A stretch of DNA of 64,000 nucleotides, taken from a virus. This document shows positions 42,304-60,117 of this stretch, in pieces. The notes under the pieces were generated by a model, which was not told the DNA's origin, made no database searches, and saw only the letters and a program-made list of their open reading frames with translations. Made by a program: the position numbers and the translations under genes. The stretch lies in IMG/VR virus record IMGVR_UViG_3300045988_115271; one strand, 5' to 3'. Position 1 is the stretch's first letter. Each line of letters begins with the position of its first letter.

Positions 42304-42753
42304 TTATAATTCTACATAGGTGTCAATAGGAACAAAGCTGCCAATTGTACTTATCTTATATATTGAATGAATAAGGTGAGTACTTGGACTTAATTTCAGT
42401 TGAGGTACTTGATTGGATCCTTCTGTAATAAAGAAATAATAAAAAACGTCTCCAATCGTAAACTGTAACATAATATCACCTGTTACCGATCCTTCATTAA
42501 AGTAAGCCTGGATATATTGTCCAGAATTTGATATCGTACAATTTATAGGATTACCGCCCATCGTACATACCTTGCTATTATTAATTTCATCTAAAACATA
42601 GGAAGCCGCCATAGTTGCTCCATTAGATCGGTATCTACAACCAAGAATAGGTACAGGATTTCGCCATGTGGTTGTAGGGGCCGAAATCGAACAAGCAAAA
42701 ACAGGGATCTTGCCGCCAGCAACTGTATTAATATTTTCAAATCTTCTTCTCAT
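42304..42753 (-). CDS. MRRRF-family protein A (149 aa; possible fibre or receptor-binding protein)
   Basis: Begins MRRRFENINTVAGG; beta-rich and Cys-containing; shares its N-terminal motif with two other minus-strand genes. Confidence 0.45.
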   Translation of the reverse strand: MRRRFENINTVAGGKIPVFACSISAPTTTWRNPVPILGCRYRSNGATMAASYVLDEINNSKVCTMGGNPINCTISNSGQYIQAYFNEGSVTGDIMLQFTIGDVFYYFFITEGSNQVPQLKLSPSTHLIHSIYKISTIGSFVPIDTYVEL

Positions 42754-42757
42754 AATT

Positions 42758-43375
42758 TTATAAAATTAATTCAGTAAAAGGACGGACATAATGTGAACTA
42801 CCCCTTGAACCTGTATCCAAATGATCTCCTTGGATGTTTATATCATAATACCACGAATAGGAAAATTTTTCATTTCGAGTGGATGTCCACATTCTATTAC
42901 TCATTATCGTACCTCCTACCATTAAAAGGCATTCGTTTATTTCATTAGCATACAATGATATCAAAAAAAACTCTCCGGCGCCACCTACATATCCATTTTG
43001 ACCATTTTTAAATAAATAGCTATTAGCTTTATTAAAAGCGTAATCTGTATTACTGGTATCATATTCAAGATACGCATTCTGATTTTCACGCCCCCAATAA
43101 TCCTTTTTAATAGTTCCCATATGAGAACTATCTTGTGCAAATATATTGTCTATTTCTCCATCCTTACCCCAACGAAATGTGCCAATATATTCGGTGGCTA
43201 TAACAAAACACACTTTATCTACAAGAGCTATTCCATTGCATAGATCATTGGAATATCCTTTATTAGACCAATTTTCTTTTGTATATAATCCTCCATCTAC
43301 ATGTTGGATGTATATGCCTTTATTGATTATAAGCGAGGGATTTACCCCCATCCCTATTTGAAATCTTCGTCTCAT
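42758..43375 (-). CDS. MRRRF-family protein B (about 206 aa from the Met at 43375; the ORF is open back to 43462)
   Basis: The internal start reads MRRRFQIGMG. It is rich in Gly, Tyr, Trp and Asn, which is consistent with carbohydrate binding. Confidence 0.4.
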   Translation of the reverse strand: MRRRFQIGMGVNPSLIINKGIYIQHVDGGLYTKENWSNKGYSNDLCNGIALVDKVCFVIATEYIGTFRWGKDGEIDNIFAQDSSHMGTIKKDYWGRENQNAYLEYDTSNTDYAFNKANSYLFKNGQNGYVGGAGEFFLISLYANEINECLLMVGGTIMSNRMWTSTRNEKFSYSWYYDINIQGDHLDTGSRGSSHYVRPFTELIL

Positions 43376-43588
43376 GATTTTTGTTTGCAAGATAGCAATA
43401 ATTGACAACATAAAAGAAACCGGTTCCCTATCATCTCTGACTGAGAACCGGTAAGAAAACAATTTCAGAAAAAATTAAACCTACATAATCTTTCAAGTAA
43501 GAACAAAAAACGTACAATCTACTCTTTGACGATGCTAATATAACATATTGGAATCATACAAAAACAATGCAAGTCCGATATTCTTCGT

Positions 43589-46500
43589 CTACTTGTAGCT
43601 AACATCATCGTCCCCTTCCGAATCAGGAGTAGCGCCGATGAAGAACATCATTGACTTGTTGTTCGTCTGCTGCCACCAATTATAGGCGCGCGCTACGTCT
43701 TCCGGCGTCTTGATATTATACCATTGTTTGATAAACGTCTGTTTGGCGAGTTGCCTAAATAACTTAGACTCTCCCTTGTATGTACCGGATGTTACTTTAT
43801 CAAGTGAATAATTCCTAAGATCGGTAAGATCCTTCAGTTTTCGCCCCATAACAAACGGATCGTTAATGATATCTACCACGTTAAGCTCCATAATAAACGG
43901 CATCTGTGAAGCTATTTCGTTTATGGTTCTGAATCCGACATAGGATCCAAATTGAGTAAGCCAACTTTCTTCGTTTTCATCATCATCACGCCATCCGGCA
44001 AGAAGCATAGATACGGCCTGCATGATAAGGAACGTGCCGGCATAGACACTGAGACGTTTGAGATTGGTTTTTTCTACCTCATTCATATTGTCTTTATTTT
44101 CATTCCAGGCATCTATGATGTTTTTCATACCAGACTCGGAAGTCAGGCTAAATGTTTTGGCTATCATATTCTTTAACGTAATTGACAACCCTTCCTCTTC
44201 TTGCATTGTCTGGAAATTGAAGCCACGTCTTTTCCACAGACGTTGAGCCGACAGCACCAACCATCCTCGGTGGGCGGTCATGAACCTGGCTATCCAGTTG
44301 CGCGATGCGGCAGTTCGGTTTTCTTCATTCAAAGATCCGTTGCATATCTGCGACAAGCTACGAACTTGATTTCTGGTTATAGCCATCTGGGTTTCTACTT
44401 CCTCAACAGTAACACCCGATCCTGGCTTTACAACCACCTTCCCATCCACGACGTCTACCATACTCCATAAAGTACGATCTTTTAATGCGTTCCATTCTCT
44501 TTTTATGGTACTCTGTTCTTTATTGCGTTCTTTTTCCATCTTGAAATCTTGGAACGTGTAGAACCGGCCTTTGTAATAACGAACATTGTCCATAGTAGCA
44601 ATCATAACCTGCGGATCAAGAGGGTAGTTCAGGATTTCCATAAAAGCATACATAGGTGAACGCATTAAGGTCCTGGCCACTCTATTATATCCGGCACCAT
44701 ACATACGATTTCGGATATTGAATATCCCCATTCTCTCACCTATGACATATAATTTGCTTTTCCTATCTATGTCTCCGGTTTCTGCTATACAAGATGGAGC
44801 AAGGCGTGAAAATTCAGCCGATGCGTATTTAAGGGAGTCTTTGCTTATATACTGTCCTACGGCAGATTCCATGATGAGGTTGATATGACCTGTAAGGGCG
44901 CCGGTAGCTGCCACAAACGGGGACAGCGCCAGGTTCATAACCGACATAAATCTTTCAACGGCCATCATTATCCTGGTAAGGTCTACTGTGTACCCACCGA
45001 TGTTCACCGTAAGTTTTTTGGTGTTCATCCTAATGCCATAATAATGGTCATTGAAGAAGTCCCTGAACATCTGATATGCTTGGGTTGCTTCAGCTTTCTT
45101 ACCGCCTTCAAATTGCTTATTCAGTAACATCTGCTCCAGTCCTTGGGCAAGCTCTATAGATTTCTGCTTTTCGTTGTATAATGATGATTGCATCATAAGC
45201 ATCGAATAAGAGTAACCAAAATCATGAGATACGTCATCTTGGTTCTCTAATTCATATATGTAGTATTTAGGTATGGACCGAACCCTATCTTCCGGATCAT
45301 ATACTTCCCCTTGTCTGGTTTTACCGTATAGAGAATCGTCTACTCTGTCCAGGCAGAGATCTGATACAAAATTACGAACCGTATTTTTGAAGTTAATACC
45401 CAATCCTTCTACACGTTCTATGTCTTGTTTTGATATCTGTGGAATAGCATACAGGTTCGGGCTCTGCTCTTTGTATAGATCAAGGGATTGTCTTTTTATT
45501 TCCTTGAGTTTTTGAATCATATTCCACTGCTCTACGTTTTTAGTAGCGACCTCATTACCGTCAGCATCATACTTGATACCAAAGTCATTAAAATACGATT
45601 CATCACGATACAGGCTTTTCTTGGGCATGCGATGACCATACCCATGATCTTTTACATAATCAGGATTACGGCCGCTATTTTCGGCTTCAGATTCAGCCAC
45701 CCATGCCCTTGCAGGGTCAAAAGACAGGTATGATATGTCCATACCGTAATCTTGGGTGGATGTTCCGTTCTGTACGTCTTTAACCATCTGCGCCACATCT
45801 ATCTCACCTCGACCAATTTTGTCGATCATAGCCGCATATCCGGTAGGTGCCATGCGTTTATAGTATGAAAAGACCTGGCTCCTGGCAAATTCATTAACGA
45901 CCGCATTAGCTTCTTCTATACCTGATTCTCTTGTGTTATTTAAAAACAAGCTGGCCATCTTAGCATTGACGGCATTCCTAAAATCTCTACCGTCTAATTC
46001 TTTGCTTATTCCAAGCTTTTCTGACAAGTAGTTGGTTTCAGATACGGTAAACAGATGCCGGTTATCAGCAGCTTTGAATAACTTATCCCTTAAAGCCTGA
46101 ATCCTTTTTGCTTTCTTTGCCGTAGTATGACGTTGCACAAACTTCCATTCCACTTCCTTGGAGTCAGCAAGAGCATTTAAATAAGACTGATTTACTTCGT
46201 TTTCAGCCTTACTGCTTTTAGTAAGGTACTTATCAATATCTTCAAGACCCACCATCTTAGCATAATCTATCAAAATAGCGTAATCGGCTTCAATAGCTTC
46301 AGATGCGGCCCTAAAAGCATCTCTTTCAGATGAGGTAAATGTCGCTTCATTAATTTCTCCGATATCAGCCACATCTCGGTTGTTTCCGATTATTTCCTTG
46401 ATAATGGCCTTATTTTTTTCTATATCTTTTACAATCGAATCCACGTCAGTTGCATCTCTATCACTTGTCGTAGAACTAATGATGTCTTGTGCCATTTTAA

Positions 46501-49500
46501 GATACGAAGCCTTGTTATTTGATTCGGTACGCGCCGATTGTTCTGATTCTACGTCATTCCAAAACCGATCGTTGAATGACAGGTGACCCCCCAACATAAG
46601 TGTCTTCAGCGCAGCTTCTCCTCCAGATTCACGCTGAATAGTTCTCAATTTTTGCAGAAATGATTCTGATACGGCATTAGTGACATTATTTGATTCTTTT
46701 CTCCAAACTTCATTTATGGCTTGTATTTCTTTAGCCATCTTGAGTTGATCACCGGTTTTATCTACTCTCCTGGTTCCTACGTATATGTATTCTGAAGCTG
46801 CTTCCTTACGTTGTTTACGAAGCAGTCCTTCTTCTTCGTAGTTACTACTCTTATAGTAAGCAACCTCATCAAAATTACCACCGCTATCAATAAAAGGCTG
46901 CCTCAATATCCGCTTCTGCCGAGAAAGAGCATTAAGGTATTCTTTGGTTGTTTGAGAAACCGGATGCCCTAATTCTTCTTCGGCCTTTTTGTATATGGAT
47001 TCCATTCTTGTGGCATAACTTTCACTAAATTCCAGTTCTGAATTTTCAGCATCCCACTTCTCCATCTGTTCTGTATAAATCTTTTCCTGCTCGATGGTAA
47101 AAATATCGGTATTAACCCTATCGGACGACGGTTTAAATTTAGCGTTCTCAGTAACCGTATTTCCGTCCTTGTCAACTACTTCTCTTTTAAATACGTAATT
47201 ACGGTTATTGTCAACCACATCATTGATTTCTTCTTCTGATATCTCTATGTTCATGGCGGTCGCAAACGCTCGCATCTGCGCCAGCTTCTTATTACGATCG
47301 TATTTAGCCATATCAAGAGCACTACGAAGATAATTAGAAGTTTTTCCGTCTACTTTCTGAAGCAGTTTTTCAAATTCAGATTTGTTAAAACCATGCTTTT
47401 TCGCATATGCCAGGAAGTCGGATATGGCGGGCTGGGCATTCACCATCGCATTGTAATTGTCTTTGGCAATCATAGCTCCAAGAGCGTTATTGAACGGGCT
47501 GGAGGAATGTTCTAATATACCAAACCACCTACTTATCCAGGACACATCATGTTGAACCTTATCAAAGAACTCTTTTACTCTCTTTACCTTATCTGCCGGC
47601 ACATGAAGTTCGTTCATTAACTTATCAAGCAACGTACTTTCATCAAGATCTTGTACTGATTTAATATCAGACTGAATACCGTTGATGTCGGCAATGACGG
47701 TATTGATCCTATTTGTATAATCCTGCTTTTCACGCTCATCAAATTCGGTACTTCTGTTACGGATATATCCTCGAAGATCGTTCATGATCGGAAGAACCTG
47801 GTTGTTGATAATATCTACGTTCTTTCGATCATTGGTATTGAAATGAAGCTTACCGTCTTTGGTATCACCATGAAGGATAGTATTTACTACGTTGCTTAAG
47901 TATCTAACCTGAGCTTCGGCTGTGGAGATCATGCTGTTCATGGCGGCCGCCATCTCATTCTTGTCTATTTCGGTCTCTACCTTATTTATCTTATCTTCTA
48001 TGGTCTTAAGCTGGGCAAGGGTCATAGACGTAGTTACAGCCCTATCAGAGCTTATCTGACGTAAGTCTCTTAACGTTTTTCTCAATGCCCGGATCTTAGA
48101 CTCAAGAAACTTGTTCTTCTTCATAGAAGAAAGGGAATATAATGTAAAATCATTATCCTTCAAAAGAGAAGTATCAAATCCTTTATCTATGTCGGTAATA
48201 GCAAGATCACGAATATTTTTAATAACGTTATTCAAATCCTGTCTTTGGGTTGATAAAGCTGATTTAAGCCAGTTTACAATTCCAGAGAGAAGCTGCCGGA
48301 CGCGCCCCAGGAAGGAGGTGGGCTCTACCGGCGCCTGTGCTGTGCCGGTCTGCATCTCCCTGGCGAGGATCTTTCCAAGAATTTCTCTCCTAACAGCATT
48401 ATCAAGTTCAGAGCCTTCATATACCTTACCGTATGTATTATAATACTGACCTGCATACTGATTCCATTCTTCAGTGCCTTCTACATCTTGCAAAACAGAT
48501 TCAACAGCATTCTGATCTCTGTACGCCTCTACGAGAAAGTGTGCTGTTTCTTCTACTAAGTCAGACAAAGTAGCATCTTCACCGACTGCTATTACGTTAT
48601 TGGCAATATCCGCCAATGCCTTAGCAGAAGGTTCGTGTCCGTATTTAGTTTGGTACTTCTCTATATAATCGGTCATGCCAACGACACTAACGCCCAGCGT
48701 TTTCAGTATCTCAACAATAGAATTTCGTTGATTACGTTCCTCTTGGCTATAATCCGATACTATCTTAGCTTTAGTATCAGCATAAAGATCATTGTCTTCT
48801 AATATAAATGAAACTACAAGCGCATCAAAGTGATCGTATTTAGCATCCAATTCATTGTATCTTCCAGACTTAAGATCGCTCTTTATCTGCTCCTTGCTAA
48901 CTCTTTCTGTTCCTCCGGTGGCGAGTCTCATAGTTACCTTACTATTATCCAATGAATTTATGGTTATCATACCCTGGTCGTTCATGGAAACATCGGAACC
49001 AAAATGATTACGGAGCTCAGTGTAGGATAAGGCTGAATTGAAAAGTCTAATTTGTCCTGTATGTCCTTCTCCTGTAATATAATAGCTTCTTGTTTCCGGA
49101 TCGAATATCTTGGATCCGGACAAAAGACCTTTCTTTATAAGGTAGTTAATTATACCGCCTTTTGTTGATAAAGAAGTAGAAGCAGAAGCGGTCATGACCG
49201 GTATAAAAGACTTGGGATTATTAAGAACATACTTTCCAGCCTTGTAAGTAATGTCTGCCACTCCATCCACGGTAGATTCTTGAACGATGCCTGATAAGAA
49301 TCCTATTCTGATATCATTCCCGCCAGAGCGAAGAGCTTCTCCGTAATCTTCAAATAATTGATTACGATCATTCATAAAAAACAAACGAGGTTCTCCAGTC
49401 TGATACGTTACACCCACAGGATTAGAATCTGTTTCTGGTAGCTCTTCTGGACTAAATATCTTAAGACCGTATTTTATAACCATATAATTAACATCATTAT

Positions 49501-50011
49501 CCTGTACCATAGATACGGGAGTGAAGTCCGAAGATATAGCATCTTGTAGATACTGCCCTGAGTCTATTCCTGGTTCTTCCGGCACGGAGATACTTGACGG
49601 AACCATAGCATCCACCAACATAATATTATCACCCAGATCTTGGCTATAAAATCCAAAGCCTGATTCTTGAATCCCATAAGGTGCATCTGATTTCGACACA
49701 AGAATAGGGTTGCTCATCTTAGAAGCCTTATCCAGCACCCTTTCTCTATAGGTCTCTGGAATAAGGCCGATGTTAGATTTTACCTTATTGTAAGCCTGTT
49801 TGTTGATAGGCACATTCCTTCTCCAGTCACCAAAAGCCTTTAAGAACTTATTAGAAAATACGGTTTTAAAAACAGTAGTAGCCCGTTCCCTATTCTCCAT
49901 AAGAGGAATAGATGCTATTTTATCAAACAACATAGACCTGTCCCCTGATCTGGTAGAGACAGAAACAACTTTATTTTTATTATCTCTTTTAATAATACAC
50001 GTTGATGTCAT
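43589..50011 (-). CDS. giant protein of unknown function (2140 aa; possibly an ejection or virion component)
   Basis: Uninterrupted 6.4-kb ORF. The sequence is largely alpha-helical and charged, with a hydrophobic segment near the C-terminus (VYAGTFLIMQAVSMLLAGW). I see no catalytic motif. The ATG at 50011 is preceded by a TAccTTTG -7 motif. Confidence 0.6.
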   Translation of the reverse strand: MTSTCIIKRDNKNKVVSVSTRSGDRSMLFDKIASIPLMENRERATTVFKTVFSNKFLKAFGDWRRNVPINKQAYNKVKSNIGLIPETYRERVLDKASKMSNPILVSKSDAPYGIQESGFGFYSQDLGDNIMLVDAMVPSSISVPEEPGIDSGQYLQDAISSDFTPVSMVQDNDVNYMVIKYGLKIFSPEELPETDSNPVGVTYQTGEPRLFFMNDRNQLFEDYGEALRSGGNDIRIGFLSGIVQESTVDGVADITYKAGKYVLNNPKSFIPVMTASASTSLSTKGGIINYLIKKGLLSGSKIFDPETRSYYITGEGHTGQIRLFNSALSYTELRNHFGSDVSMNDQGMITINSLDNSKVTMRLATGGTERVSKEQIKSDLKSGRYNELDAKYDHFDALVVSFILEDNDLYADTKAKIVSDYSQEERNQRNSIVEILKTLGVSVVGMTDYIEKYQTKYGHEPSAKALADIANNVIAVGEDATLSDLVEETAHFLVEAYRDQNAVESVLQDVEGTEEWNQYAGQYYNTYGKVYEGSELDNAVRREILGKILAREMQTGTAQAPVEPTSFLGRVRQLLSGIVNWLKSALSTQRQDLNNVIKNIRDLAITDIDKGFDTSLLKDNDFTLYSLSSMKKNKFLESKIRALRKTLRDLRQISSDRAVTTSMTLAQLKTIEDKINKVETEIDKNEMAAAMNSMISTAEAQVRYLSNVVNTILHGDTKDGKLHFNTNDRKNVDIINNQVLPIMNDLRGYIRNRSTEFDEREKQDYTNRINTVIADINGIQSDIKSVQDLDESTLLDKLMNELHVPADKVKRVKEFFDKVQHDVSWISRWFGILEHSSSPFNNALGAMIAKDNYNAMVNAQPAISDFLAYAKKHGFNKSEFEKLLQKVDGKTSNYLRSALDMAKYDRNKKLAQMRAFATAMNIEISEEEINDVVDNNRNYVFKREVVDKDGNTVTENAKFKPSSDRVNTDIFTIEQEKIYTEQMEKWDAENSELEFSESYATRMESIYKKAEEELGHPVSQTTKEYLNALSRQKRILRQPFIDSGGNFDEVAYYKSSNYEEEGLLRKQRKEAASEYIYVGTRRVDKTGDQLKMAKEIQAINEVWRKESNNVTNAVSESFLQKLRTIQRESGGEAALKTLMLGGHLSFNDRFWNDVESEQSARTESNNKASYLKMAQDIISSTTSDRDATDVDSIVKDIEKNKAIIKEIIGNNRDVADIGEINEATFTSSERDAFRAASEAIEADYAILIDYAKMVGLEDIDKYLTKSSKAENEVNQSYLNALADSKEVEWKFVQRHTTAKKAKRIQALRDKLFKAADNRHLFTVSETNYLSEKLGISKELDGRDFRNAVNAKMASLFLNNTRESGIEEANAVVNEFARSQVFSYYKRMAPTGYAAMIDKIGRGEIDVAQMVKDVQNGTSTQDYGMDISYLSFDPARAWVAESEAENSGRNPDYVKDHGYGHRMPKKSLYRDESYFNDFGIKYDADGNEVATKNVEQWNMIQKLKEIKRQSLDLYKEQSPNLYAIPQISKQDIERVEGLGINFKNTVRNFVSDLCLDRVDDSLYGKTRQGEVYDPEDRVRSIPKYYIYELENQDDVSHDFGYSYSMLMMQSSLYNEKQKSIELAQGLEQMLLNKQFEGGKKAEATQAYQMFRDFFNDHYYGIRMNTKKLTVNIGGYTVDLTRIMMAVERFMSVMNLALSPFVAATGALTGHINLIMESAVGQYISKDSLKYASAEFSRLAPSCIAETGDIDRKSKLYVIGERMGIFNIRNRMYGAGYNRVARTLMRSPMYAFMEILNYPLDPQVMIATMDNVRYYKGRFYTFQDFKMEKERNKEQSTIKREWNALKDRTLWSMVDVVDGKVVVKPGSGVTVEEVETQMAITRNQVRSLSQICNGSLNEENRTAASRNWIARFMTAHRGWLVLSAQRLWKRRGFNFQTMQEEEGLSITLKNMIAKTFSLTSESGMKNIIDAWNENKDNMNEVEKTNLKRLSVYAGTFLIMQAVSMLLAGWRDDDENEESWLTQFGSYVGFRTINEIASQMPFIMELNVVDIINDPFVMGRKLKDLTDLRNYSLDKVTSGTYKGESKLFRQLAKQTFIKQWYNIKTPEDVARAYNWWQQTNNKSMMFFIGATPDSEGDDDVSYK

Positions 50012-50034
50012 AGTAAAACATTTTTGTTATGAGA

Positions 50035-50042
50035 CAAAGGTA
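50035..50042 (-). promoter_or_regulatory. Bacteroides-type -7 motif TAccTTTG upstream of the giant gene
   Basis: The plus-strand CAAAGGTA at 50035..50042 reads TACCTTTG on the minus strand, 24 nt upstream of the ATG. Confidence 0.4.
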
Positions 50043-50059
50043 GTTAAAAATCAAGCATA

Positions 50060-50101
50060 TCATAAAAAATAAAGCCACCTAACTTCTCAGTCTGATGGCT
50101 T
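50060..50101 (-). terminator. hairpin plus T-run terminator candidate on the minus strand
   Basis: AAGCCA (50072..50077) pairs with TGGCTT (50096..50101). On the minus strand the stem is followed by TTATTTTTTAT. It lies between the 107-aa gene and the giant gene. Confidence 0.4.
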
Positions 50102-50153
50102 AAAAATAATATGAAAAAAAATTATAATCTGACGAAAAATCGTCAAGTTACGC

Positions 50154-50477
50154 TTATGCATTGTATTTGTACCCATTTCTATGAATAAACCTTCCTGATT
50201 CGAACCTTTCCACATCATCCGGTCCAATAGGTCCGCAGTCTTCCCTCCTTGCCTCATACCACAGCCCAGGCTTACGAAGTCGGCAGGTTATGACGTATTT
50301 AAAACAGTTGTGAGTAAAATGGAATACGGAGCCTACTGGGAAATACCTGGTAGTTTGAAACACTATTCTTTTTCGTTTAGTATCAAACACTATATCTCCT
50401 ACTACCTTAGTTACGTAATAGCTTCTGCCATTTAACGTTTCATCTGTTTGTGGTATCCAATAATAACCTCTTGCCAT
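50154..50477 (-). CDS. hypothetical protein (107 aa)
   Basis: ORF in the minus-strand block. Confidence 0.4.
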   Translation of the reverse strand: MARGYYWIPQTDETLNGRSYYVTKVVGDIVFDTKRKRIVFQTTRYFPVGSVFHFTHNCFKYVITCRLRKPGLWYEARREDCGPIGPDDVERFESGRFIHRNGYKYNA

Positions 50478-50506
50478 GCCACAAATATATAAAAAAGTCG
50501 GATAAC

Positions 50507-51503: not shown

Positions 51504-51505
51504 GA

Positions 51506-51781
51506 CTATAAATTTAATATTCCGTTTTTACCAATATGTTTCTTTTCTTCTTCAGTAGGCCATTCTTTCTTGAACTTACCATGCCACGTTCCAGGAACTA
51601 CCACCACTTCGCCTCCCTTACTATATTCAATAGCGGCACATTCAGAACAAAGAGGCTTGCCTTCATATCCCTTTAGCGACTTATCGTAAATACGATTCTT
51701 ACAAGGTCTTGTAAGAGCCCAGTAACACGATGTGGCTGTATTATCTATACAGCCACATCGTGAACAAACAAACAAACTCAT
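51506..51781 (-). CDS. zinc-ribbon protein (91 aa)
   Basis: CSRCGC and CSEC motifs. Confidence 0.4.
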   Translation of the reverse strand: MSLFVCSRCGCIDNTATSCYWALTRPCKNRIYDKSLKGYEGKPLCSECAAIEYSKGGEVVVVPGTWHGKFKKEWPTEEEKKHIGKNGILNL

Positions 51782-52674
51782 TTCACAACCTCCCAGTCAT
51801 TCGACGATATATCTTCTATACTTGGATTCCACGATGTCAGCCTCCGTGTTTCTTCATTTATAATTATGATCAATGACTTTTCCACATGAATTGAGCTAAC
51901 ACCACTTTTTCTAAAAGCATCAAGATGTTCATTTTTCCACCCATGCCTTTTGATATTATTACCATTTTTCAAAAATTTAAAAGCTTCTTCAAATGTTAAA
52001 CCCGATTTCTTTCGAAAAAGATACTGTTCAAGTCTGTCTGCGGCTTCATTTGGTGTATGGCCATCGTATTCGAAAGCGGTTTCTCTCTCAGGAACATCAA
52101 ACAAATCCCAGTACTTGCTTTCATAGTGATTAGACACCTGACCAGTGGGTAACATTGCCATCACAATAAACCAATCATCAGAACCGAAGCATTTTTCTCC
52201 GTCGCTGTGTCTCCTTGATTTGCAAACTTCAACCTGTCCGTTTCTGGCTAATAAATTAAAGAAGGCAGCGTTATACAACATGCGATACCGATACAATTCA
52301 TTGAAAGTGTGGTATCCGTCAGAGACTTCTCCCACGTCTACAGGCTTCTTGTTTTGAATACTACCCAAAATATTCTCTATATAGAGCTGTATTTTATACA
52401 TACCCATTTCGGTGTGGCCGTATTTGTTCAAGATATTATTGACATCGTATTGTATATTAAAATCTTTTTCAAATTCTACTTCAGGATGATTAGAATAGTA
52501 GTAATCTACTGATGCTTCTAACACGGACTTGATGTGTTCTACTATCCTCGTAGCATCATCATGTTTAAAAAAATGCTTTAATCTTTCAACGAATTTAATA
52601 TCTTCATTGATTGTTGATTCGAACTCTTCTTTTGTCATCACTCTAATTACATCTTTAAAATCTTTTAATTCCAT
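51778..52674 (-). CDS. hypothetical protein with a C-terminal DUF2829-like domain (298 aa)
   Basis: C-terminal FEEAFKFLKNGNNIKRHGWKN... resembles the phage-associated DUF2829 signature (A.e.Lk.Gk.v.R.GW). Confidence 0.4.
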   Translation of the reverse strand: MELKDFKDVIRVMTKEEFESTINEDIKFVERLKHFFKHDDATRIVEHIKSVLEASVDYYYSNHPEVEFEKDFNIQYDVNNILNKYGHTEMGMYKIQLYIENILGSIQNKKPVDVGEVSDGYHTFNELYRYRMLYNAAFFNLLARNGQVEVCKSRRHSDGEKCFGSDDWFIVMAMLPTGQVSNHYESKYWDLFDVPERETAFEYDGHTPNEAADRLEQYLFRKKSGLTFEEAFKFLKNGNNIKRHGWKNEHLDAFRKSGVSSIHVEKSLIIIINEETRRLTSWNPSIEDISSNDWEVVK

Positions 52675-52904
52675 TATTTGTAATATTTTAATTGTTCATA
52701 AATCCTATATTTACTTATATCATCGCACAGGTTACACCCTCCTGTACATCCACAAACCGAACAATACGAGTCTCTTTCTTCCTTCGGTCTGGATTGAAAA
52801 TCTCTTACAGCCTTAATCCATATAGGAGAAATAATCTTACCGGAAAATACAGGTACATTTAAAAGTAGTGTTTTCATGATTTTGGCAAAACATTCATATA
52901 ACAC
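52674..52904 (-). CDS. small Cys-rich protein (76 aa)
   Basis: CSVCGCTGGCNLC. Confidence 0.35.
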   Translation of the reverse strand: MLYECFAKIMKTLLLNVPVFSGKIISPIWIKAVRDFQSRPKEERDSYCSVCGCTGGCNLCDDISKYRIYEQLKYYK

Positions 52905-53092
52905 GGCACATCTACCACATCTCTTCTATGAAGTCCCTTTTCAAAATAGGAAACCATGTAAGTGTTTTTACCTTCGTGATCAGGTCTGGGATCAAAGCAT
53001 TCAAAAACGAATCTTGTTCTACCTTCAAGATGACCAAACATGAAAACAAATTCGCCACCGTATCTTTTATTAGCTAATTCTTCTACGGTCAT
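52874..53092 (-). CDS. hypothetical protein (72 aa)
   Basis: ORF in the minus-strand block. Confidence 0.35.
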   Translation of the reverse strand: MTVEELANKRYGGEFVFMFGHLEGRTRFVFECFDPRPDHEGKNTYMVSYFEKGLHRRDVVDVPCYMNVLPKS

Positions 53093-53316
53093 AATCTGTC
53101 TCCTCCCAATCCTGAATTGATGCTAACGTACTTGACACGAACTTCATTTCCACGTCCAAGCTGACCCCAGCCGGGCGATGGCGTTCCCTTGGCCGGAGCA
53201 GGGACAGCCCTAAGCCGAGACCAGTCCTGCTTTTGCCTCATGGCTTCGGCCTCTTTGTAATACCGGTTACACAGTTCTTGATCTTCGTAACCAACGTAAT
53301 CTTCCTTATTTTCCAT
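53089..53316 (-). CDS. hypothetical protein (75 aa)
   Basis: ATGA overlap with the upstream ORF. Confidence 0.35.
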   Translation of the reverse strand: MENKEDYVGYEDQELCNRYYKEAEAMRQKQDWSRLRAVPAPAKGTPSPGWGQLGRGNEVRVKYVSINSGLGGDRL

Positions 53317-53380
53317 AAAAAATACTTTTTCAACAAAAGTACGACATTTATAAATTAATTAGATTTAAAATAAAACAATA

Positions 53381-53421
53381 TGAATTAAAATAAAAACCCG
53401 ATACGTTAAAATCGCATCGGG
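53381..53421 (-). terminator. Rho-independent terminator candidate (minus strand)
   Basis: CCCGATACG (53397..53405) pairs with CGCATCGGG (53413..53421), 8 of 9 base pairs. On the minus strand the stem is followed by TTTTTATTTTA. It lies downstream of the 60-aa gene. Confidence 0.5.
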
Positions 53422-53443
53422 CCTGGTATTGAGAAAAATAGGT

Positions 53444-53620
53444 TCAGATCTTGGGTAAAGATTCGAGCCAATTTTTAACATCTTTATATTTAGGGTCTTT
53501 GTCTATTCTATCTTTCAGTTCATGCAATGCTGAGTCCATAACCGTATTCGGTACGCCAATCAACTCTCCTATTAAATACAATGGGGTTTTATTCGATTTA
53601 GATTCGTGTGCTATATTCAT
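53444..53620 (-). CDS. hypothetical protein (about 58 aa from the ATG at 53620)
   Basis: Small ORF; the ORF track used a TTG two codons upstream. Confidence 0.3.
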   Translation of the reverse strand: MNIAHESKSNKTPLYLIGELIGVPNTVMDSALHELKDRIDKDPKYKDVKNWLESLPKI

Positions 53621-53647
53621 ATCCAAAAAAAAGTTATGTGAAACAAA

Positions 53648-53815
53648 CCGGCCACGGGTATTCTATTGCCCGCCGACCGGTATAATATTTTTATTCCTTT
53701 TTTTCCAAACGGGAAAAACGGGAATGCGGGAATCATATTTTTTACTATGGCTCCCGCACCACCGGAAGGACCTGGATCTGGATCTCAGGTCAGATCCTTC
53801 CAGTTTATTTTTTCG
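53648..53815. promoter_or_regulatory. structured intergenic region with four elements: a GC-rich hairpin (53648..53680); three direct (A/G)CGGGAA repeats (53708..53734); a second hairpin GCGGGA/TCCCGC (53726..53757); and a GGATCT-caggtc-AGATCC hairpin plus T-run (53780..53813) reading as a plus-strand terminator
   Basis: All elements are visible directly in the sequence. The region is 158 bp and non-coding. On the minus strand the repeats read TTCCCG three times, about 80-110 nt upstream of the 60-aa gene. Confidence 0.4.
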
Positions 53816-54078
53816 CCGAGGTAATCTTGCACGGCAAGCCATCTTATAAAGGCTACTCCTTCGGGAGCATCCGGATCATCCAAATACATTAACGTAGCTT
53901 TCACCAACTCGTTCTCACATTTGAAGACCTTCGGAAAACCATCCGAATAGTACATTGCAAAGACATATTGGACATCGCCCCATGTCGCTTTATCCGGCTT
54001 CTTCGCTCCGCACTTTTCAAAAATATCTTTTATTTCCGGCTGCTTCCAGATCCTCTTGGATCCATCGACGTTGACCAT
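53785..54078 (-). CDS. hypothetical protein (97 aa)
   Basis: ORF in the minus-strand block. Confidence 0.4.
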   Translation of the reverse strand: MVNVDGSKRIWKQPEIKDIFEKCGAKKPDKATWGDVQYVFAMYYSDGFPKVFKCENELVKATLMYLDDPDAPEGVAFIRWLAVQDYLGEKINWKDLT

Positions 54079-54171
54079 CTTCTTTACCGCCTCATCAGCG
54101 AGAGCATTAGAAAAATGGTAGCCGTAAGTATCTACATATTTCTGATAAGCTGGATCCTCTGCGTCTGCTCC

Positions 54172-54549
54172 TCAATAAGAACGACCTCTGCCACGTCCGC
54201 GACCTCTACGCATCTGAGGTCCGTCACCGTAGTATCTGTCGTCTCCATAGTAATCGGTCGGGTAGGATTCGTAACCCATCCTCCGGTATTCCCGGTCCTC
54301 CATTTCATGACGACGTTCGCGCTCTTCGAGCCTTCTTTCCCTTTCTTCCAGCTCGTTTTCGCGTTCTTCCATTTCCTTCATCTTCTCATGCATACCGTAA
54401 TGATCATAAGGAGGAAGGAACCCATGTCCGTACTCCATGTACGTCCCATCAGAACGACGGCTTCTGCCTCTGCCTCCACCTCGCCTGTCTTCTATCTCAT
54501 CATATCCAGGATATTCTCTGTGTCCTGAATTTAAATCATATACTATCAT
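54172..54549 (-). CDS. Arg/Glu-rich protein with RGG/RG-repeat termini (125 aa)
   Basis: DRRGGGRGRSRR at the N-terminus, a central ERERRLEERERRHEMEDRE stretch, and a C-terminal RRGRGRGRGRSY. It is probably disordered and nucleic-acid binding. Confidence 0.5.
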   Translation of the reverse strand: MIVYDLNSGHREYPGYDEIEDRRGGGRGRSRRSDGTYMEYGHGFLPPYDHYGMHEKMKEMEERENELEERERRLEERERRHEMEDREYRRMGYESYPTDYYGDDRYYGDGPQMRRGRGRGRGRSY

Positions 54550-54556
54550 ATTATAC

Positions 54557-55051
54557 TTATTTCAAACGTTCTACAATTAACTTCTTTAAATCTTCGAATG
54601 AATCAGTAAGGTCATTCACCTTATTTTCTATACCAGCTATTTTACGATCCTGCTCTCTCGTTTGTTTGAATGCCGGATTGATGTCTTCTAATATAGATTC
54701 ACAAGCCTCTATCTTGGCACGATGGGTATCTACGCTGTCTATTATGTCTTGACTGGTGCTTTTTATAGCATTCAGTTCGTTCATAATCGGATCTATGCTG
54801 GTAGATAATGTTATACCCATAGCCTTAGCCACATTTTGGGATTCCGGGACCGTATAGGTCTTGGTTTCGCCAGTGAGCTCTACCGTCAGATCCACCACGC
54901 GGGTCTGCATCGCCTGATACTGACCCGGCTGAGGAGGAAGATACCTGGGTTCGGATACGGCTACTACCTTTCCCAATTCGTATTTAGGTACTGTATTAGT
55001 ATCAAGGGTATGTACCTGAAACCCCTTCTTCAAATCTGAAAACATGATCAA
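54557..55051 (-). CDS. hypothetical protein (164 aa)
   Basis: ORF in the minus-strand block. Confidence 0.45.
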   Translation of the reverse strand: MIMFSDLKKGFQVHTLDTNTVPKYELGKVVAVSEPRYLPPQPGQYQAMQTRVVDLTVELTGETKTYTVPESQNVAKAMGITLSTSIDPIMNELNAIKSTSQDIIDSVDTHRAKIEACESILEDINPAFKQTREQDRKIAGIENKVNDLTDSFEDLKKLIVERLK

Positions 55052-55101
55052 AATATTATTTAGGTGAAAATAGGGTGATGATCTCCATCACCCTACTGAA
55101 A

Positions 55102-55515
55102 TCATTTACCTGCTTTAACTTCAGACGCCTGGGCTGCCGCTACTGGAACACAGCAATCCATTAATCTTAACACGCCACGAACTTTATTGAAGTACAGAAG
55201 GCGTTCTGTGCCATTTACCATAGCAGCACCCGTTACAGCTACGTTAATAGGGTTCACGACATTCACTCCCGTAACCGAGCAACAGGTGTCGGCTCCTACT
55301 GTTGAAACTGTGCTGTTTGCCGGGACCGCAATCTGTACCGGTAGAGCACTTCCGGCTGTGGGGACTACTTGCCTTATCTTAAGAAGGATAAGACCCTCAC
55401 ACGGAAGGGCGATCCAAGCCCGTGGGTTAATACCGAAGACTGTATTTGTCGTACTGACAATAACATTCTTCGTAACCATCTCATACAACGATCCTATTTT
55501 AGAAACACAAGCCAT
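55102..55515 (-). CDS. Val/Thr/Ala-rich beta-type hypothetical protein (137 aa)
   Basis: ORF in the minus-strand block; low complexity. Confidence 0.4.
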   Translation of the reverse strand: MACVSKIGSLYEMVTKNVIVSTTNTVFGINPRAWIALPCEGLILLKIRQVVPTAGSALPVQIAVPANSTVSTVGADTCCSVTGVNVVNPINVAVTGAAMVNGTERLLYFNKVRGVLRLMDCCVPVAAAQASEVKAGK

Positions 55516-55538
55516 ATTAGCCTCCTTTCTTAATAAAA

Positions 55539-56546
55539 TCAGACAGCAGCGTTGTTATTGCAACATCCGTTGTTACATCCGCATCCGTTATTACAGCAAC
55601 CTCCTCCGAATACCTGTCCCCAAGTATAAGCCTGGTAAGGAGAACAAGAGGGGTAGGCCGGGACGGCCGTCGGGCGTAATTGACCAACGATATTCTGGGT
55701 TTGTTGCTGAGATAATGCCGAAGCTGTCAAAGCCGCTTTTTCTTCACGAAGTTGAGCAATAGTGTTCTGCATCTCCCTCATTTCCAACTGACAGAATTTG
55801 TCGTTGATCATAACGGTTTGGGCGTCAAGTTTCGCAGACAAGATATTGAATTGGCTTGTAGCTTGCTCACGATTGTTAGCCAGACCTTGGTTGAGACCAT
55901 TCTGCAAGATATTGGTTTGTTCCAACGTGCGAAGCTGGTTATCAAAACCTTGCTGAGTAATCATTCCCTGAGTCTGGCAAGTGCTTTGATTGATCAACGA
56001 ACTCAGATTGCAGCAGCAAGAGCTGATTTGATTTCCTATTTCACAACCTTGTTGTTGAACTGCGTTGATAACAGCCTGAGAAGTCATACCTACCTGACCA
56101 GCTACTTTATCAATAGCACCCTGTACGTTGCAGATAGCGTTCTGAAGTTGAGTAGTAGAACAGTTCAAAGCAGAAGCAATCTGATCTATGGCGCTACGAT
56201 TACCTTGAATTGCCTGCATCAAAAGTTCACGACCGTAATCGTTATTCAACTGAGCCGGCAAACCATTGGCGCAACAATCACCGCCATTTCCAAAACCGTT
56301 ACCGAAGCCGCGTCCACCCCACAGCCAGAACAAAACAATTATCCAGAGCCACCAACCGTTAGCCCCACCGAAACCGTCCTGGTTGTTACGACCGTTCATC
56401 AAAGCCGCCACCAGATTCGGATCCATTTTATTACCACCTATCAAATTAGCAAACATGCCGGGAATCATTGAAAGAAGACCGTTAGTGGCTGCACCACCAC
56501 CGTTAGCCCCGGCTCCATCTAAAAGGACGATTTTATCACCACCCAT
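55539..56546 (-). CDS. Gly/Gln/Asn/Cys-rich membrane protein (about 335 aa from the Met at 56546; the ORF is open back to 56621)
   Basis: A Gly-rich N-terminus (GAGANGGGAATNG), a transmembrane segment WWLWIIVLFWLW, a long Q/N-rich helical region, and a C-terminal GGGCCNNGCGCNNGCCNNN tail. Confidence 0.45.
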   Translation of the reverse strand: MGGDKIVLLDGAGANGGGAATNGLLSMIPGMFANLIGGNKMDPNLVAALMNGRNNQDGFGGANGWWLWIIVLFWLWGGRGFGNGFGNGGDCCANGLPAQLNNDYGRELLMQAIQGNRSAIDQIASALNCSTTQLQNAICNVQGAIDKVAGQVGMTSQAVINAVQQQGCEIGNQISSCCCNLSSLINQSTCQTQGMITQQGFDNQLRTLEQTNILQNGLNQGLANNREQATSQFNILSAKLDAQTVMINDKFCQLEMREMQNTIAQLREEKAALTASALSQQQTQNIVGQLRPTAVPAYPSCSPYQAYTWGQVFGGGCCNNGCGCNNGCCNNNAAV

Positions 56547-56574
56547 AATTTTATAGTATTTAATTGTTAAACAT

Positions 56575-56591
56575 ACGTGCATGAAGCACGT
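56575..56591. promoter_or_regulatory. perfect palindrome ACGTGC-atgaa-GCACGT just upstream of the Gly-rich gene
   Basis: 6-bp stem with a 5-nt loop, seen directly. Confidence 0.35.
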
Positions 56592-56881
56592 AACAAAGAT
56601 CATGATTGCAGGGTGGAACAAGGCTGAGTTTGTTTCCGATAAAATGGAAGGATTTTCAGTAAAAACGGAAATATAATATACAACGAGTAGTTTTCCCCAT
56701 TTATGGGGAAAAATTGATAATCAGCAACTTTCGCTTTTCCTTTTTTGGGTAAAGCGCTGTAAATCAAAACAGGATCCGCATCACTGCGAATCCTGCCTCA
56801 ACTAATCTAAACTAAAATACCATGAAAAACTTTTCCCTACTAAAACTAAAGAACGAACAAATGTATGAAAATACATGCTTT

Positions 56882-57079
56882 TCACAAAGAATCCGTATCC
56901 TGTTCTTTGGTATGGTTAAGTACATGGGATATAGTTCTGATACTTAATCCGGTTTGATTTTGTATCAGATTATAAATATAGGATTTTGAAACTACAGTTC
57001 TTAATTGACCTAAATCATTCATAATGTTTTTATACATAAGATGAATGCTGTTGTTACGTTTGATGGTACTGATTCTCAT
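56882..57079 (-). CDS. small helix-turn-helix DNA-binding protein (65 aa)
   Basis: NQTGLSIRTISHVLNH resembles a classic HTH recognition helix (xxGhSxxThSRhLN). It is the only ORF in a 680-bp intergenic region. Confidence 0.4.
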   Translation of the reverse strand: MRISTIKRNNSIHLMYKNIMNDLGQLRTVVSKSYIYNLIQNQTGLSIRTISHVLNHTKEQDTDSL

Positions 57080-57224
57080 TTCCTACTGTTATTAGTTACG
57101 TTCGGTTCTTACTTTTTCCTTATTTCCATAATCCCTTCCTGAAACTAATATTGCAAACTTAACAAAAATAATTCATAAACAATGAAAATCTAACTTTTCT
57201 TGTATGTTATTGATATACGTGCAT

Positions 57225-57259
57225 ATATAAGAAAAGTGAGACTTTCACAAGCCTCACTT
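57225..57259 (-). terminator. hairpin terminator candidate downstream of the 752-aa gene (minus strand)
   Basis: AAGTGAG (57234..57240) pairs with CTCACTT (57253..57259) across a 12-nt loop. On the minus strand the stem is followed by TTCTTATATAT. Confidence 0.4.
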
Positions 57260-57301
57260 CCCAAATTATAACTATGAAAAAACTATATATATATACAAAA
57301 A

Positions 57302-59560
57302 TTACCTGCATTCCAATTTGTTAAGATCATCCAATTCAGACTTACTTACGGTCATGTCTTGCGTCAAGCCAGATCTGTTTTGGTATGGAGCGTAATCAGT
57401 TTCTACCGTCTTAGCCTTCTGAGTAGAATCGTATTTCACCTCCGATTCGGTTCCTGTCAGATTTTGGTAGATAGAGCCGGAACTACTCTCGCTTACTTTA
57501 GACCATATCTTATTACCTACTCTTATAAAATTATCATAAATACCTTCTGCTGTTATAACACCATCTTGCTCTACGATATTAGAACCCGATTTTTCTTTTA
57601 ACAAATACGGGTGCCTGGTGTAAAAATAGTGTTCAAAATCATTCCCAGCATACGAAGGGTCATACCTCTCCAAATAAAACAATTCTGATAAAGAAGGGTC
57701 GGTACTGGTCATGCTATAATCAAACAACATCAACCTGTCTTTTCCAGATAAAGATAATTCTATTGATTTCAAAATATCAGGATCATCAGAAATAAGACCC
57801 AAAGATGGACCAGGTTTGAAGTCAAGATACTTATAGGCATTATCATATAATTTTGTTTTATGGAGTTTGTTGTCAAGGTAAGATTGGTATAAATCGAATA
57901 AGGATAATGGGTTTTCGCTATCTTGTTTTTTGTTCATGTATCGACTATACTCCCGATCCACATCCACGTAAGGAACGTCAAGTACCGCCGGGTGTCCAAA
58001 CGCCATCCTGGTCATTATCATGTCCTCTGTGTTCTGAGAATCCATGAACGATCTGACGTATTTTTTAATGGAATCCATGAGCGTATTATTATCTACGTTC
58101 CGTACTTTCTCTTTATCCAAAACGCCGTTCTTAAAACAAGATTCAGGATATATTTTAGTAGAAAAATGAGTTAGGTTGTGCTTGGCTAATACTGTTGATA
58201 TTTGATACATCTCGTTAAGATCATCTTTGCTGATCCTTTGATATAGATTATCTCCTACCTTAAGCAATGAATGCTTCTCAAATGCTTCTACTGGGTCTAT
58301 ATTTGATTCAGAATAAACGATATTCAAATTATCCATATACTCCGGCAATAATCCAAAATAATAGTCTGTACTATCACCAAGAACATCATCTATAGAAGAT
58401 GCCAGCGTTGGAGCATAATTTACATCATTATGCCTGGCCACATAAATATCAAGATCCAGCATCAAATTATCTATCTTATTCAAAGATTCTTCTGTGCCAT
58501 CATAAGTTTTCGATGTCCCTATTATATCTATGCCAAACCACGTACAAGCCTCTTCTATATCCCATATCATGCTTCTTAAATCGGATTCGGTGTCGGCATT
58601 AGCCCTATGTAAATAAGCCGATATACGAGCTCTTAGGAACTCTATTTTGCCAGGATTGTAATAAGACAGATCTTGTAACTTAGACAAGGATCTTCTCTTG
58701 CCTTCTACCACATCATCCCCTTCTATGTTTATTACCGGAATCTTATTCGTAGATGAGAACTCATCAAACATAGATTCGGCAAATTCTTTATCAGAAACGA
58801 ATTTCTCAACCAGTTCAGGATATGAATTTCTCAACGATTCAAAAGCAGATGAAAATTCAGAAAAGTTTTTTATGCCGGCTACTGTTTTACGCATAGCATA
58901 ATAAAGCTCAGAAGGATTATATGGTACCTTTTTACCAAATTGGTTAAACACTCCCTCCTTGTAAACAATAGGACCATACTGATAGTCAATAGACATAAAA
59001 TAATTATCTTTTTCCCTATCATGTTCGTTAATAGAAGAATCTATTAACTTTCTCATGGAAGTCGAAACCTCGTTTAAAACAGAAGGATCGGATAAAATAC
59101 GACTTATTTCTGTTTCATCATACAAACCGGATCTCCTTAATTTCTGCTCATTCAGTATCAAACTGCCATCTACATAAAAATCGAAGAGAATAGCATTAGA
59201 CAATGAAGACGCATTGAAAAAATAATGAGTAGACAAAAGGAAATCCCTTACATCCTTAACATCCTGAGCCGTTAAAGGATCAGCAAAATAAGTCTGACGC
59301 TTCATATACGACAGCACGTCTTCTAAAAGAGGTTCACCATTGGGATCGGTATTAAACATCTCTCCTGGAGCCGGGTTATTCCAATGACCGTAATACGACA
59401 AAAAACCAGGAGTGTAAGCCTTAGCCCATACCTGAAGAGCCCGCTCGCTGTTTCCTAATACTTTTAAAGCACTTTCGTAAAGAACGGAAGGCTCCCCGTT
59501 AGGAGCCTTAACCCGTTTTATTTCATTTTCCTTTTTTTCTATCTGACATTTGACACCCAT
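57302..59560 (-). CDS. large protein of unknown function (752 aa)
   Basis: Uninterrupted ORF with no recognisable catalytic motif. A TAacTTTG motif sits immediately upstream, at 59568..59575 on the minus strand. Confidence 0.6.
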   Translation of the reverse strand: MGVKCQIEKKENEIKRVKAPNGEPSVLYESALKVLGNSERALQVWAKAYTPGFLSYYGHWNNPAPGEMFNTDPNGEPLLEDVLSYMKRQTYFADPLTAQDVKDVRDFLLSTHYFFNASSLSNAILFDFYVDGSLILNEQKLRRSGLYDETEISRILSDPSVLNEVSTSMRKLIDSSINEHDREKDNYFMSIDYQYGPIVYKEGVFNQFGKKVPYNPSELYYAMRKTVAGIKNFSEFSSAFESLRNSYPELVEKFVSDKEFAESMFDEFSSTNKIPVINIEGDDVVEGKRRSLSKLQDLSYYNPGKIEFLRARISAYLHRANADTESDLRSMIWDIEEACTWFGIDIIGTSKTYDGTEESLNKIDNLMLDLDIYVARHNDVNYAPTLASSIDDVLGDSTDYYFGLLPEYMDNLNIVYSESNIDPVEAFEKHSLLKVGDNLYQRISKDDLNEMYQISTVLAKHNLTHFSTKIYPESCFKNGVLDKEKVRNVDNNTLMDSIKKYVRSFMDSQNTEDMIMTRMAFGHPAVLDVPYVDVDREYSRYMNKKQDSENPLSLFDLYQSYLDNKLHKTKLYDNAYKYLDFKPGPSLGLISDDPDILKSIELSLSGKDRLMLFDYSMTSTDPSLSELFYLERYDPSYAGNDFEHYFYTRHPYLLKEKSGSNIVEQDGVITAEGIYDNFIRVGNKIWSKVSESSSGSIYQNLTGTESEVKYDSTQKAKTVETDYAPYQNRSGLTQDMTVSKSELDDLNKLECR

Positions 59561-59586
59561 TGTAATTAACTTTTTTGCAAAGTTAA

Positions 59587-60117
59587 TTATAAAACCGACT
59601 TATACAATGACGGATCCCAAATTCCTTCTATATAAATCTCCGGAAAACTCAAACTGCCATCACGAAGAGTGGTGACTTCCAAGCTGGGAATGTTGAAAAC
59701 AGTACTGGTATCACCAAACTCACCATTCAACTTAATAGCATTTCCACTATTATCAGCTTCATAATAATAATAACAATAATTTTCATTAAGACTCGGATCA
59801 TATTCGTACCAATATGTTAGATCTTGTATATGATCTTCTATGTTACCAATTTTGTTTTCACCTAATATAAAAATACCATTATTGCTATGATTATAAACCA
59901 TAGATTCATAACCACCATAATTCCAATTACTATTAAACATTATGTAACTAACATCAGAATCATGATCTTTTAATACAGGTCCTATATGTATATGAATTTT
60001 ATTAAACTGACATACATAAGGTCTTTTTCCTCCAAGCCTTTTTATATCTTCATTGGATAACTTATTATAACATCCTCCCACAAAATTATCCGCAGCATTA
60101 AAAAATCTCCTTCTCAT
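59587..60117 (-). CDS. MRRRF-family protein C (about 176 aa from the ATG at 60117)
   Basis: Begins MRRRFFNAADNFVGG, 2 nt after the stop of the 1281-aa gene. It is Tyr/Asn/Gly-rich and beta-type. Confidence 0.45.
   Translation of the reverse strand: MRRRFFNAADNFVGGCYNKLSNEDIKRLGGKRPYVCQFNKIHIHIGPVLKDHDSDVSYIMFNSNWNYGGYESMVYNHSNNGIFILGENKIGNIEDHIQDLTYWYEYDPSLNENYCYYYYEADNSGNAIKLNGEFGDTSTVFNIPSLEVTTLRDGSLSFPEIYIEGIWDPSLYKSVL

Follow-up and report, generated by a model that had tools for sequence, protein, structure and literature searches.

Three genes on the minus strand of a 64,000-nucleotide (nt) stretch of viral DNA (IMG/VR record IMGVR_UViG_3300045988_115271; this whole stretch is the window below) encode proteins, P1, P2 and P3, that all begin with the five residues MRRRF, which we call the tag. 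At 95% identity, the region matches phage crAssE-Sib (OR575929; 151 kb; from the human gut), an epsilon crAss-like phage for which the genus Epsilonunovirus has been proposed (PMC11054128). We found the minus strand of the window to carry the end of a late virion-gene block, in which the gene order is a structural protein of 2208 amino acids (aa), P3 and a 752-aa gene and, further on, a 2140-aa protein, P2 and P1; P2 and P1 lie at the convergent junction with the replication genes (Table 1). By tblastn, the 2140-aa protein matches the virion structural proteins of phi17:2 and phi4:1 as well as crAss-like phages, and among its relatives are the giant virion proteins found in Cellulophaga phages, as well as proteins of crassviruses that have been annotated as RNA-polymerase subunits.

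A preliminary description of this DNA had drawn attention to the MRRRF start on three otherwise dissimilar proteins. We scanned the window with the degenerate 15-mer ATGAGAMGRAGATTT, with 100 dinucleotide-preserving shuffles as the control, and found exactly three matches, all on the minus strand, relative to 0.00 expected (the shuffles gave none). All three sites are the first codons of intact open reading frames (ORFs), namely P1, P2 and P3, and no other window ORF of at least 40 aa starts with M-R-R-R, so the shared start is confirmed. When the relaxed pattern ^M.{0,3}[RK]R[RK][FYLIVMTC] was applied to the 543 Met-initiated ORF starts of the window, it returned P1-P3 and one loose match, MKRKIRRT, in the replication module; this 116-aa ORF (23698-24048, plus strand) probably has nothing to do with the tagged set. 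Once the first six residues were taken off, none of the pairs among P1-P3 reached E<0.1 by BLASTP. Hence, "otherwise dissimilar" stands. Each start had also been placed 2-4 nt past the preceding stop, which is correct for P1 (4 nt) and for P3 (2 nt after the 2208-aa gene) and incorrect for P2, which starts 213 nt after the stop codon of the 2140-aa gene (43589-43591), downstream of a terminator-like hairpin.

Table 1. Tagged genes and associated features (positions refer to the window unless another record is named)
Feature	Position	Strand	Description
P1	42304..42753	-	149 aa, MRRRFENINTVAGG...; slot 2 of the module after the 2140-aa gene
P1 tag codons	42739..42753	-	ATG AGA AGA AGA TTT; ATGAGAMGRAGATTT match
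P2	42758..43375	-	205 aa, MRRRFQIGMG...; slot 1 of the module after the 2140-aa gene
P2 homopolymer	43345..43349	-	G5, P2 codons 9-11; tract length varies among relatives
P2 tag codons	43361..43375	-	ATG AGA CGA AGA TTT; ATGAGAMGRAGATTT match
Terminator-like hairpin	43419..43452	-	strong; ACCGGTTC...GAACCGGT with a T run behind it; separates P2 from the 2140-aa gene; left boundary of the P2-P1 indel
2140-aa giant virion protein	43589..50011	-	phrog_37651 "virion structural protein", E 9e-76; final conserved gene of the late operon
752-aa gene	57302..59560	-	right flank of the P3 slot; first ~27 nt duplicated in tandem F-Y and Y-F loci
P3 ("F cassette")	59587..60117	-	176 aa, MRRRFFNAADNFVGG...; slot flanked by the 2208-aa giant gene and the 752-aa gene
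P3 tag codons	60103..60117	-	ATG AGA AGG AGA TTT; ATGAGAMGRAGATTT match
2208-aa giant structural protein, C-terminal part	60120..64000	-	WOZ57301 homologue; continues past the window end
WOZ57290	crAssE-Sib		MSRRRY, 153 aa
WOZ57291	crAssE-Sib		MRRRF, 240 aa, Gly_rich_2 protein
WOZ57302	crAssE-Sib		MRRRY, 192 aa, Y cassette
WOZ57324	crAssE-Sib		P2 homologue
WOZ57325	crAssE-Sib		P1 homologue
Acidic family members	L002 38894-40006; L088 9327-9998; L090 8016-9065; L091 10765-11799; L093 8926-9996		candidate acceptor family

Beyond the window, a relaxed tag pattern was applied to all ORFs of 60 aa or more on either strand of the 151-kb crAssE-Sib genome, and only five genes were returned (WOZ57290, WOZ57291, WOZ57302, WOZ57324 and WOZ57325). 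A sixth tagged ORF, WOZ57292, is a 32-aa MRRRF remnant, of which a relative has an intact 99-aa version. We found that all six M(S)RRR[FY] ORFs lie on the virion-gene strand, at three loci adjoining the muzzle gene and the giant virion-protein genes. Directly upstream of WOZ57290 and WOZ57291, WOZ57289 (L003 12289-12750) encodes a 153-aa HExxH metallopeptidase (phrog_15610, protease), and it is conceivable that the peptidase processes tagged proteins.

The tag is retained where the sequence behind it is not. The preliminary description had suggested asking whether homologues keep the motif; an exhaustive HMMER search showed that homologues of P1 with 40-63% identity do retain MRRRF, and at 40% identity the tag is identical at 5/5 positions vs 0/10 for residues 6-15. 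Among 104 full-length homologues (45-96% identity) of the Gly_rich_2 protein WOZ57291, [RK]R[RK] occurs in the first eight residues of 90 and RRR in 80; the residue after the basic triplet is mostly F, T, L, V or Y, and in 88 of the 104 the leader ahead of the domain measures 16-18 residues. The searches with P2 and P3 returned close relatives only and are therefore uninformative on deep conservation of the tag. At distant loci, the Arg codons are AGA, AGG, CGA and CGT, and one to three extra residues sometimes precede the Arg triplet. Hence, selection at the tag is on the protein and not on a DNA word. The Gly_rich_2 leaders (P0104-P0223) fall into two 17-residue classes, MRRRFxxKxRELEDFLI and MLRRRTIGSKKLVFFQK. 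The domains that carry them share about 88% identity, and this points to leader swapping and perhaps to two types of acceptor.

In distant phages, too, genes whose N-termini are rich in Arg stand side by side, in twos or threes. A 180-kb crAss-like phage (L090) has three tagged genes (MLRKRT, MLRRS and MLRRC), and a Mu-like element (L088, 3910-12100), possibly a prophage on a 256-kb metagenome scaffold, has three as well, in looser form: MNRRKV, MSRRRF and MNIRRF. Of the tagged genes in these phages, two show homology to the Y cassette of crAssE-Sib. The segment of the Mu-like element between the genes for MuF and a ClpP-type prohead protease contains the tagged genes together with an acidic "IYINKD" protein and a 1245-aa protein.

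One tagged protein has a recognizable fold. WOZ57291 matches Pfam PF21722 Gly_rich_2 (E 3.6e-16, 60.3 bits vs a cut-off of 24.3) and phrog_416 "minor tail protein" (E 1.6e-8). Its structural model, based on 92 sequences, has a predicted local distance difference test score (pLDDT) of 90.5, with residues 1-4 below 50 and the first strand beginning at residue 12, and the tag is predicted by this model to be a disordered N-terminal tail. The modelled fold resembles the Bxb1 tail "wing brush" gp33 (PDB 9D93) and the tail-fibre tip gp24 of Pam3 (PDB 7YPX), and Foldseek against viral models returned glycine-rich, minor-tail, tail-fibre and collagen-like proteins. These relatives came from the fold search only, as the Gly_rich_2 family had no match among PDB sequences. 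The 17-residue leader that opens with MRRRF occupies the position of the homologues' docking segment.

P1-P3 themselves gave no significant match to Pfam or PHROGs, PDB sequences searched with P1 and P2 profiles yielded nothing under E 0.6, and PF21722 Gly_rich_2 had no match in any of the three. The preliminary description had called the C-terminal parts beta-rich, and those of P2 and P3 lectin-like in composition; the sole domain hint in that direction was PF07603 (Lcl_C/DUF1566, C-type-lectin-like), for which P2 scored 11.3 bits (E 0.43) relative to a gathering threshold of 34.9, and the best of seven homologues reached E 0.21. This hint gained no support from hhalign, which gave a probability of 0.9% against one DUF1566 domain. 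Big_2 repeats in P1 were likewise unsupported: a phmmer match to P0245 was obtained (E 2.6e-5, 8 stretches), but the hhalign probability was 0.4%.

The slot that holds P3 varies among close relatives. In 80 IMG/VR loci with the C-terminus of the 2208-aa protein at least 95% identical, we found F (P3) alone, Y alone, F-Y, Y-F, neither cassette (L078 and L079), frameshifted copies, and a copy together with a TnpB-like ORF. The Y cassette (192 aa, MRRRYEDVSS...) is allelic with P3 and unrelated to it in sequence (E 0.7 vs P3), and the left flank of the F and Y alleles is identical through ATGAGAAGGAGAT, after which they diverge at once. The tandem loci contain a hybrid junction, composed of the first ~27 nt of the 752-aa gene and the last 35-60 nt of the giant gene, which implies unequal crossover between genomes with different alleles; the hybrid spacers at L046 5781-5915 and L014 5733-5819 (tandem Y-F and F-Y) have two different junctions, which implies independent events. 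In these tandem loci, the crossovers map to the flanking genes and not to the tag. The P3 variants (alignment A1, P0014-P0031) have differing in-frame deletions of 10-50 residues in the Asn/Tyr-rich middle and also frameshifted tails, and in several relatives (L065, L072 and L083, about 5750-7150) the TnpB-like ORF that follows the F cassette is 410 aa long.

The P2-P1 locus is similarly variable. We used 80 loci in which the C-terminus of the 2140-aa protein is at least 99% identical and found that P2 and P1 are both missing in 14 of them, where the hairpin joins the convergent 162-aa gene directly. Hence, the P2-P1 pair behaves as an indel past the operon terminator. P2 alleles are often truncated, or a P1 paralogue (MRRRFLSYD) takes the place of P2. 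In the P1 slot, relatives have a tagged cassette of about 245 aa instead, or P1 is absent; the first 57 residues of this cassette resemble the Y family (hhalign E 1e-5), and the flank that the slot-2 alleles have in common extends through the tag. The close homologues, which are the only ones found for P2, are in many cases frameshifted or chimeric. Among the natural chimeras (P0101 and P0103; L095 6001-6510), one consists of the N-terminal half of a P1 paralogue and the C-terminal half of P2, and another has the first 33 residues of P2 followed by the C-terminal part of P1.

P2 also has a G homopolymer near its start. Among the IMG/VR relatives (L097-L176), the tract is G5 in 43, G6 in 8, and G4, G8 and G9 in 3 each, and these lengths agree with the P2 alleles truncated at 10-19 aa. 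In the ~245-aa slot-2 cassette (L096 6590-6800), a tract of G8 or G9 lies near codon 22, and a dozen loci have the cassette truncated at 24-26 aa. From the sequences, this length variation could be either slipped-strand on/off switching or assembly noise.

We propose that MRRR[F/Y] is an N-terminal docking tag for interchangeable accessory adhesins of the tail or virion, a reading to which we give an even chance. The tag, along with a short segment containing Gly or other small residues, would attach small (150-260 aa), unrelated accessory proteins non-covalently to one common virion acceptor, which would most likely be in the tail-fibre apparatus of the epsilon crAss-like phage. P1, P2 and P3 would be three such modules, and the phage lineage would hold several more. 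Since only the tag must persist, the bodies could be swapped as cassettes, duplicated, fused, deleted or switched off, and the virions in a population would bear differing sets of adhesin-type appendages. Docking by the tag would account for the strict conservation of five residues beside free divergence, for the disordered N-terminal position on a fibre-tip fold, for the location among virion genes, and for the plug-in population genetics. Since P2 and P1 are dispensable, they would be accessory appendages and not the primary fibre, if they are attached to the virion. That P1-P3 are virion proteins, that the tag docks them, and which protein accepts them is what we infer from these data. The preliminary description had likewise suggested alternative receptor-binding modules on a common adaptor; protein-level selection on the tag, unrelated bodies, one fibre-tip fold and the swapping of slots favor that suggestion, and the part that found no backing is a fibre or lectin domain in P1-P3 themselves.

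As the acceptor, a candidate on sequence grounds is a conserved, very acidic, fibre-associated family ("IYIxKD...YVELD"; WOZ57262 in crAssE-Sib). Its N-terminus reads IYIxKD..YVELD..IGxTxxDYxxGKW, it carries a net charge of -18 to -42 overall and of -6 to -13 over residues 1-60, and at four distant loci it sits beside glycine-rich tagged genes.

That receptor-binding proteins can be modular, with N-terminal anchors in common, is a known principle. In phages of the Klebsiella KP32 and the SP6/K1-5 types, secondary receptor-binding proteins dock to an anchor receptor-binding protein by a short conserved N-terminal peptide. The likeness to the tagged genes is in the short conserved N-terminus on unrelated C-terminal specificity domains and in modular exchange; however, those proteins are large trimeric depolymerases or tailspikes, whereas the tagged modules are 150-260 aa, number at least six per genome at three loci, and are often absent or inactivated. 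This Arg-rich five-residue tag itself seems undescribed: in literature searches on MRRRF, PF21722 and the phage name we found no earlier description of the motif, and the crAssE-Sib paper does not mention it (PMC11054128).

Also among the closest known kinds are the stand-alone Gly-rich fibre-tip proteins, such as Pam3 gp24, Bxb1 gp33 and the gp38-type adhesins of S16/T4. Pam3 gp24 docks to the baseplate by an N-terminal helical domain, and its TNF-like and Gly-rich part is the proposed recognizer of the receptor (PMC9608196). For Bxb1 gp33, contact is reported with gp30 (the tail wing base) and nothing else; the related phage Hami1 lacks genes 30-35, from which the authors infer that the region is non-essential, and a gp30 deletion mutant is viable (PMC12646305). 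In comparison with the helical domain of Pam3 and the ~45-residue N-terminal segment of Bxb1 gp33 (MSLKVGGLDVV...), WOZ57291 has only its 17-residue leader, and P1-P3, as far as sequence tells, do not have the Gly-rich fibre-tip fold. Within Crassvirales, residues 1-26 of the crAss001 tail fibre gp22 hold the fibre in the THA2-THB hub (PMC10172136). The likeness is in a fibre protein kept on the tail by a short N-terminal segment, but gp22 is an 832-aa primary fibre that starts MFFTQEDYRK, whereas the tagged genes are small optional modules.

Several results weigh against docking by the tag. Five residues are very short for a docking element, as the known anchors are 26 residues or whole domains. 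We found the tag in none of 22 virion-module proteins of crAss001 (gp20-gp47), and Bxb1 gp33 has no Arg-rich N-terminus. Hence, no solved structure shows the tag bound. P1-P3 have no significant domain or PDB-sequence match, and the AlphaFold2 model of P2, from a seven-sequence alignment, was unusable (pLDDT 29), which we attribute to only close relatives existing. With the Gly_rich_2 protein as the query, tblastn found four phage records, of which only crAssE-Sib covered most of the query. The place of the tagged genes in the head-gene region of the Mu-like element is unusual for fibre genes. Finally, the position of P2-P1 past a terminator-like hairpin, their absence from 14 of 80 loci and their many pseudogene alleles also fit "moron" genes.

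If P1-P3 were such morons, they would be non-structural proteins (anti-defence, superinfection-exclusion or host-modifying) and the Arg3-aromatic N-terminus would bind a host or phage factor or set stability. We consider this unlikely, although in its favor the genes at both loci are dispensable and fast-evolving, with frequent pseudogenes, in-frame deletions and chimeras, P2-P1 lie past a terminator-like hairpin where the operon ends, and P1-P3 have no homology to structural proteins; TnpB insertions nearby fit it too. Against the moron explanation, a protein whose fold is clearly that of a tail-fibre tip, and which matches minor-tail PHROGs, bears the same tag. Moreover, all tagged genes are on the late virion-gene strand beside structural genes, and in other phages they sit among collagen-like, fibre and diversity-generating retroelement (DGR)-associated genes.

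As its alternative, the preliminary description had named a common targeting or processing signal. The tag could thus target cargo into the virion, in the style of the T4 internal proteins, with P1-P3 entering the lumen of the capsid or tail along with giant ejected proteins; we regard this as a good deal less than probable and rank it below the moron explanation. The T4 internal proteins IPI, IPII and IPIII have a capsid targeting sequence of about 10 residues that ends in a cleavage site for the prohead protease. The tagged genes share with them a short common N-terminal leader, diverse small proteins and a hyper-plastic locus, and a polymorphic locus with a shared leader is what the T4 internal-protein locus looks like. 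The tagged genes of the Mu-like element lie between MuF and the prohead protease, and in crAssE-Sib two tagged genes have a gene for a small HExxH peptidase just upstream. In addition, P3, P2 and P1 are encoded directly after two giant virion proteins homologous to cargo or RNA-polymerase-related proteins of crassviruses (PMC10172136). Unlike in T4, however, no cleavage site follows MRRRF: by inspection, residues 6-12 of P1, P2, P3, the Y cassette, WOZ57290 and WOZ57291 have no cleavage motif in common, and residues 6-10 are unrelated. The giant proteins themselves are untagged, and in the single case where the fold of a tagged protein is known, it is like that of fibre tips and of appendages on the outside of the tail.

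A role at the level of the nucleic acid is highly unlikely. Here the 13-15 nt ATGAGAAGRAGAT would give cassette exchange a microhomology or a boundary, or would be a favourable context for starting translation, with no function for the peptide. The F and Y alleles that are identical through ATGAGAAGGAGAT, the slot-2 alleles whose shared flank runs through the tag, and the movement of families among three loci speak for such a role. However, distant homologues keep the residues with other codons (AGC AGG CGT AGG; AGA AGA AGG; AGG AGA AGA) and with one to three extra residues ahead of the Arg triplet, and the tandem-locus crossovers fall in the flanking genes and not in the tag. The purine-rich, Shine-Dalgarno-like stretch that the preliminary description saw in the first codons fails for the same reason, as the Arg codons vary, and by eye we found no sequence conserved upstream of the three ATGs (unaligned). 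Translation in Bacteroidota, furthermore, proceeds largely without Shine-Dalgarno pairing.

We reject the tag as the n-region of a twin-arginine translocation (Tat) or Sec (lipoprotein) signal peptide for export (RRxF), to which we assign next to no probability: R-R-R-F does fit the core of the twin-arginine consensus, and in both P1 and P3 small residues are followed by a Cys at positions 16-21, but no hydrophobic h-region of at least 12 residues follows the RR (within the first 40 residues, Kyte-Doolittle means over 12 residues peak at 1.38, 1.10 and 0.62, in segments that contain E, N, D and K), and in the Gly_rich_2 member residues 12-19 are the first β-strand of the folded domain.

Epsilon crAss-like phages are abundant in the human gut and uncultured, and most of crAssE-Sib's putative structural proteins were left without an assigned role (PMC11054128). 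The tag offers a simple sequence rule for finding candidate host-interaction modules and a concrete, testable hypothesis of their attachment to the virion. The set of tagged cassettes, and which of them are inactivated, differs between near-identical phages, and this may bear on host range and on long-term coexistence with Bacteroidales. Were the tag alone sufficient for loading, crass-like virions could be engineered through it to display foreign domains. A broader version, of which we are quite doubtful, is that Bacteroidota phages in general (both crAss-like and Mu-like) have a plug-in system in which tagged binding domains share one acidic acceptor on the virion, are reshuffled among three loci by cassette exchange and are switched on or off by poly-G slippage a little downstream of the tag, alongside the phage's DGR; if true, this would be a phage-encoded, combinatorial and phase-variable display of adhesins.

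Mobile elements were also seen beside the tagged genes. IS605-type TnpB (OrfB) genes adjoin them at L003 14017-15413 (crAssE-Sib 64017-65413) and at L095 8108-9340. The WOZ57292 remnant is 75 nt upstream of the TnpB gene, as though an insertion had cut it short.

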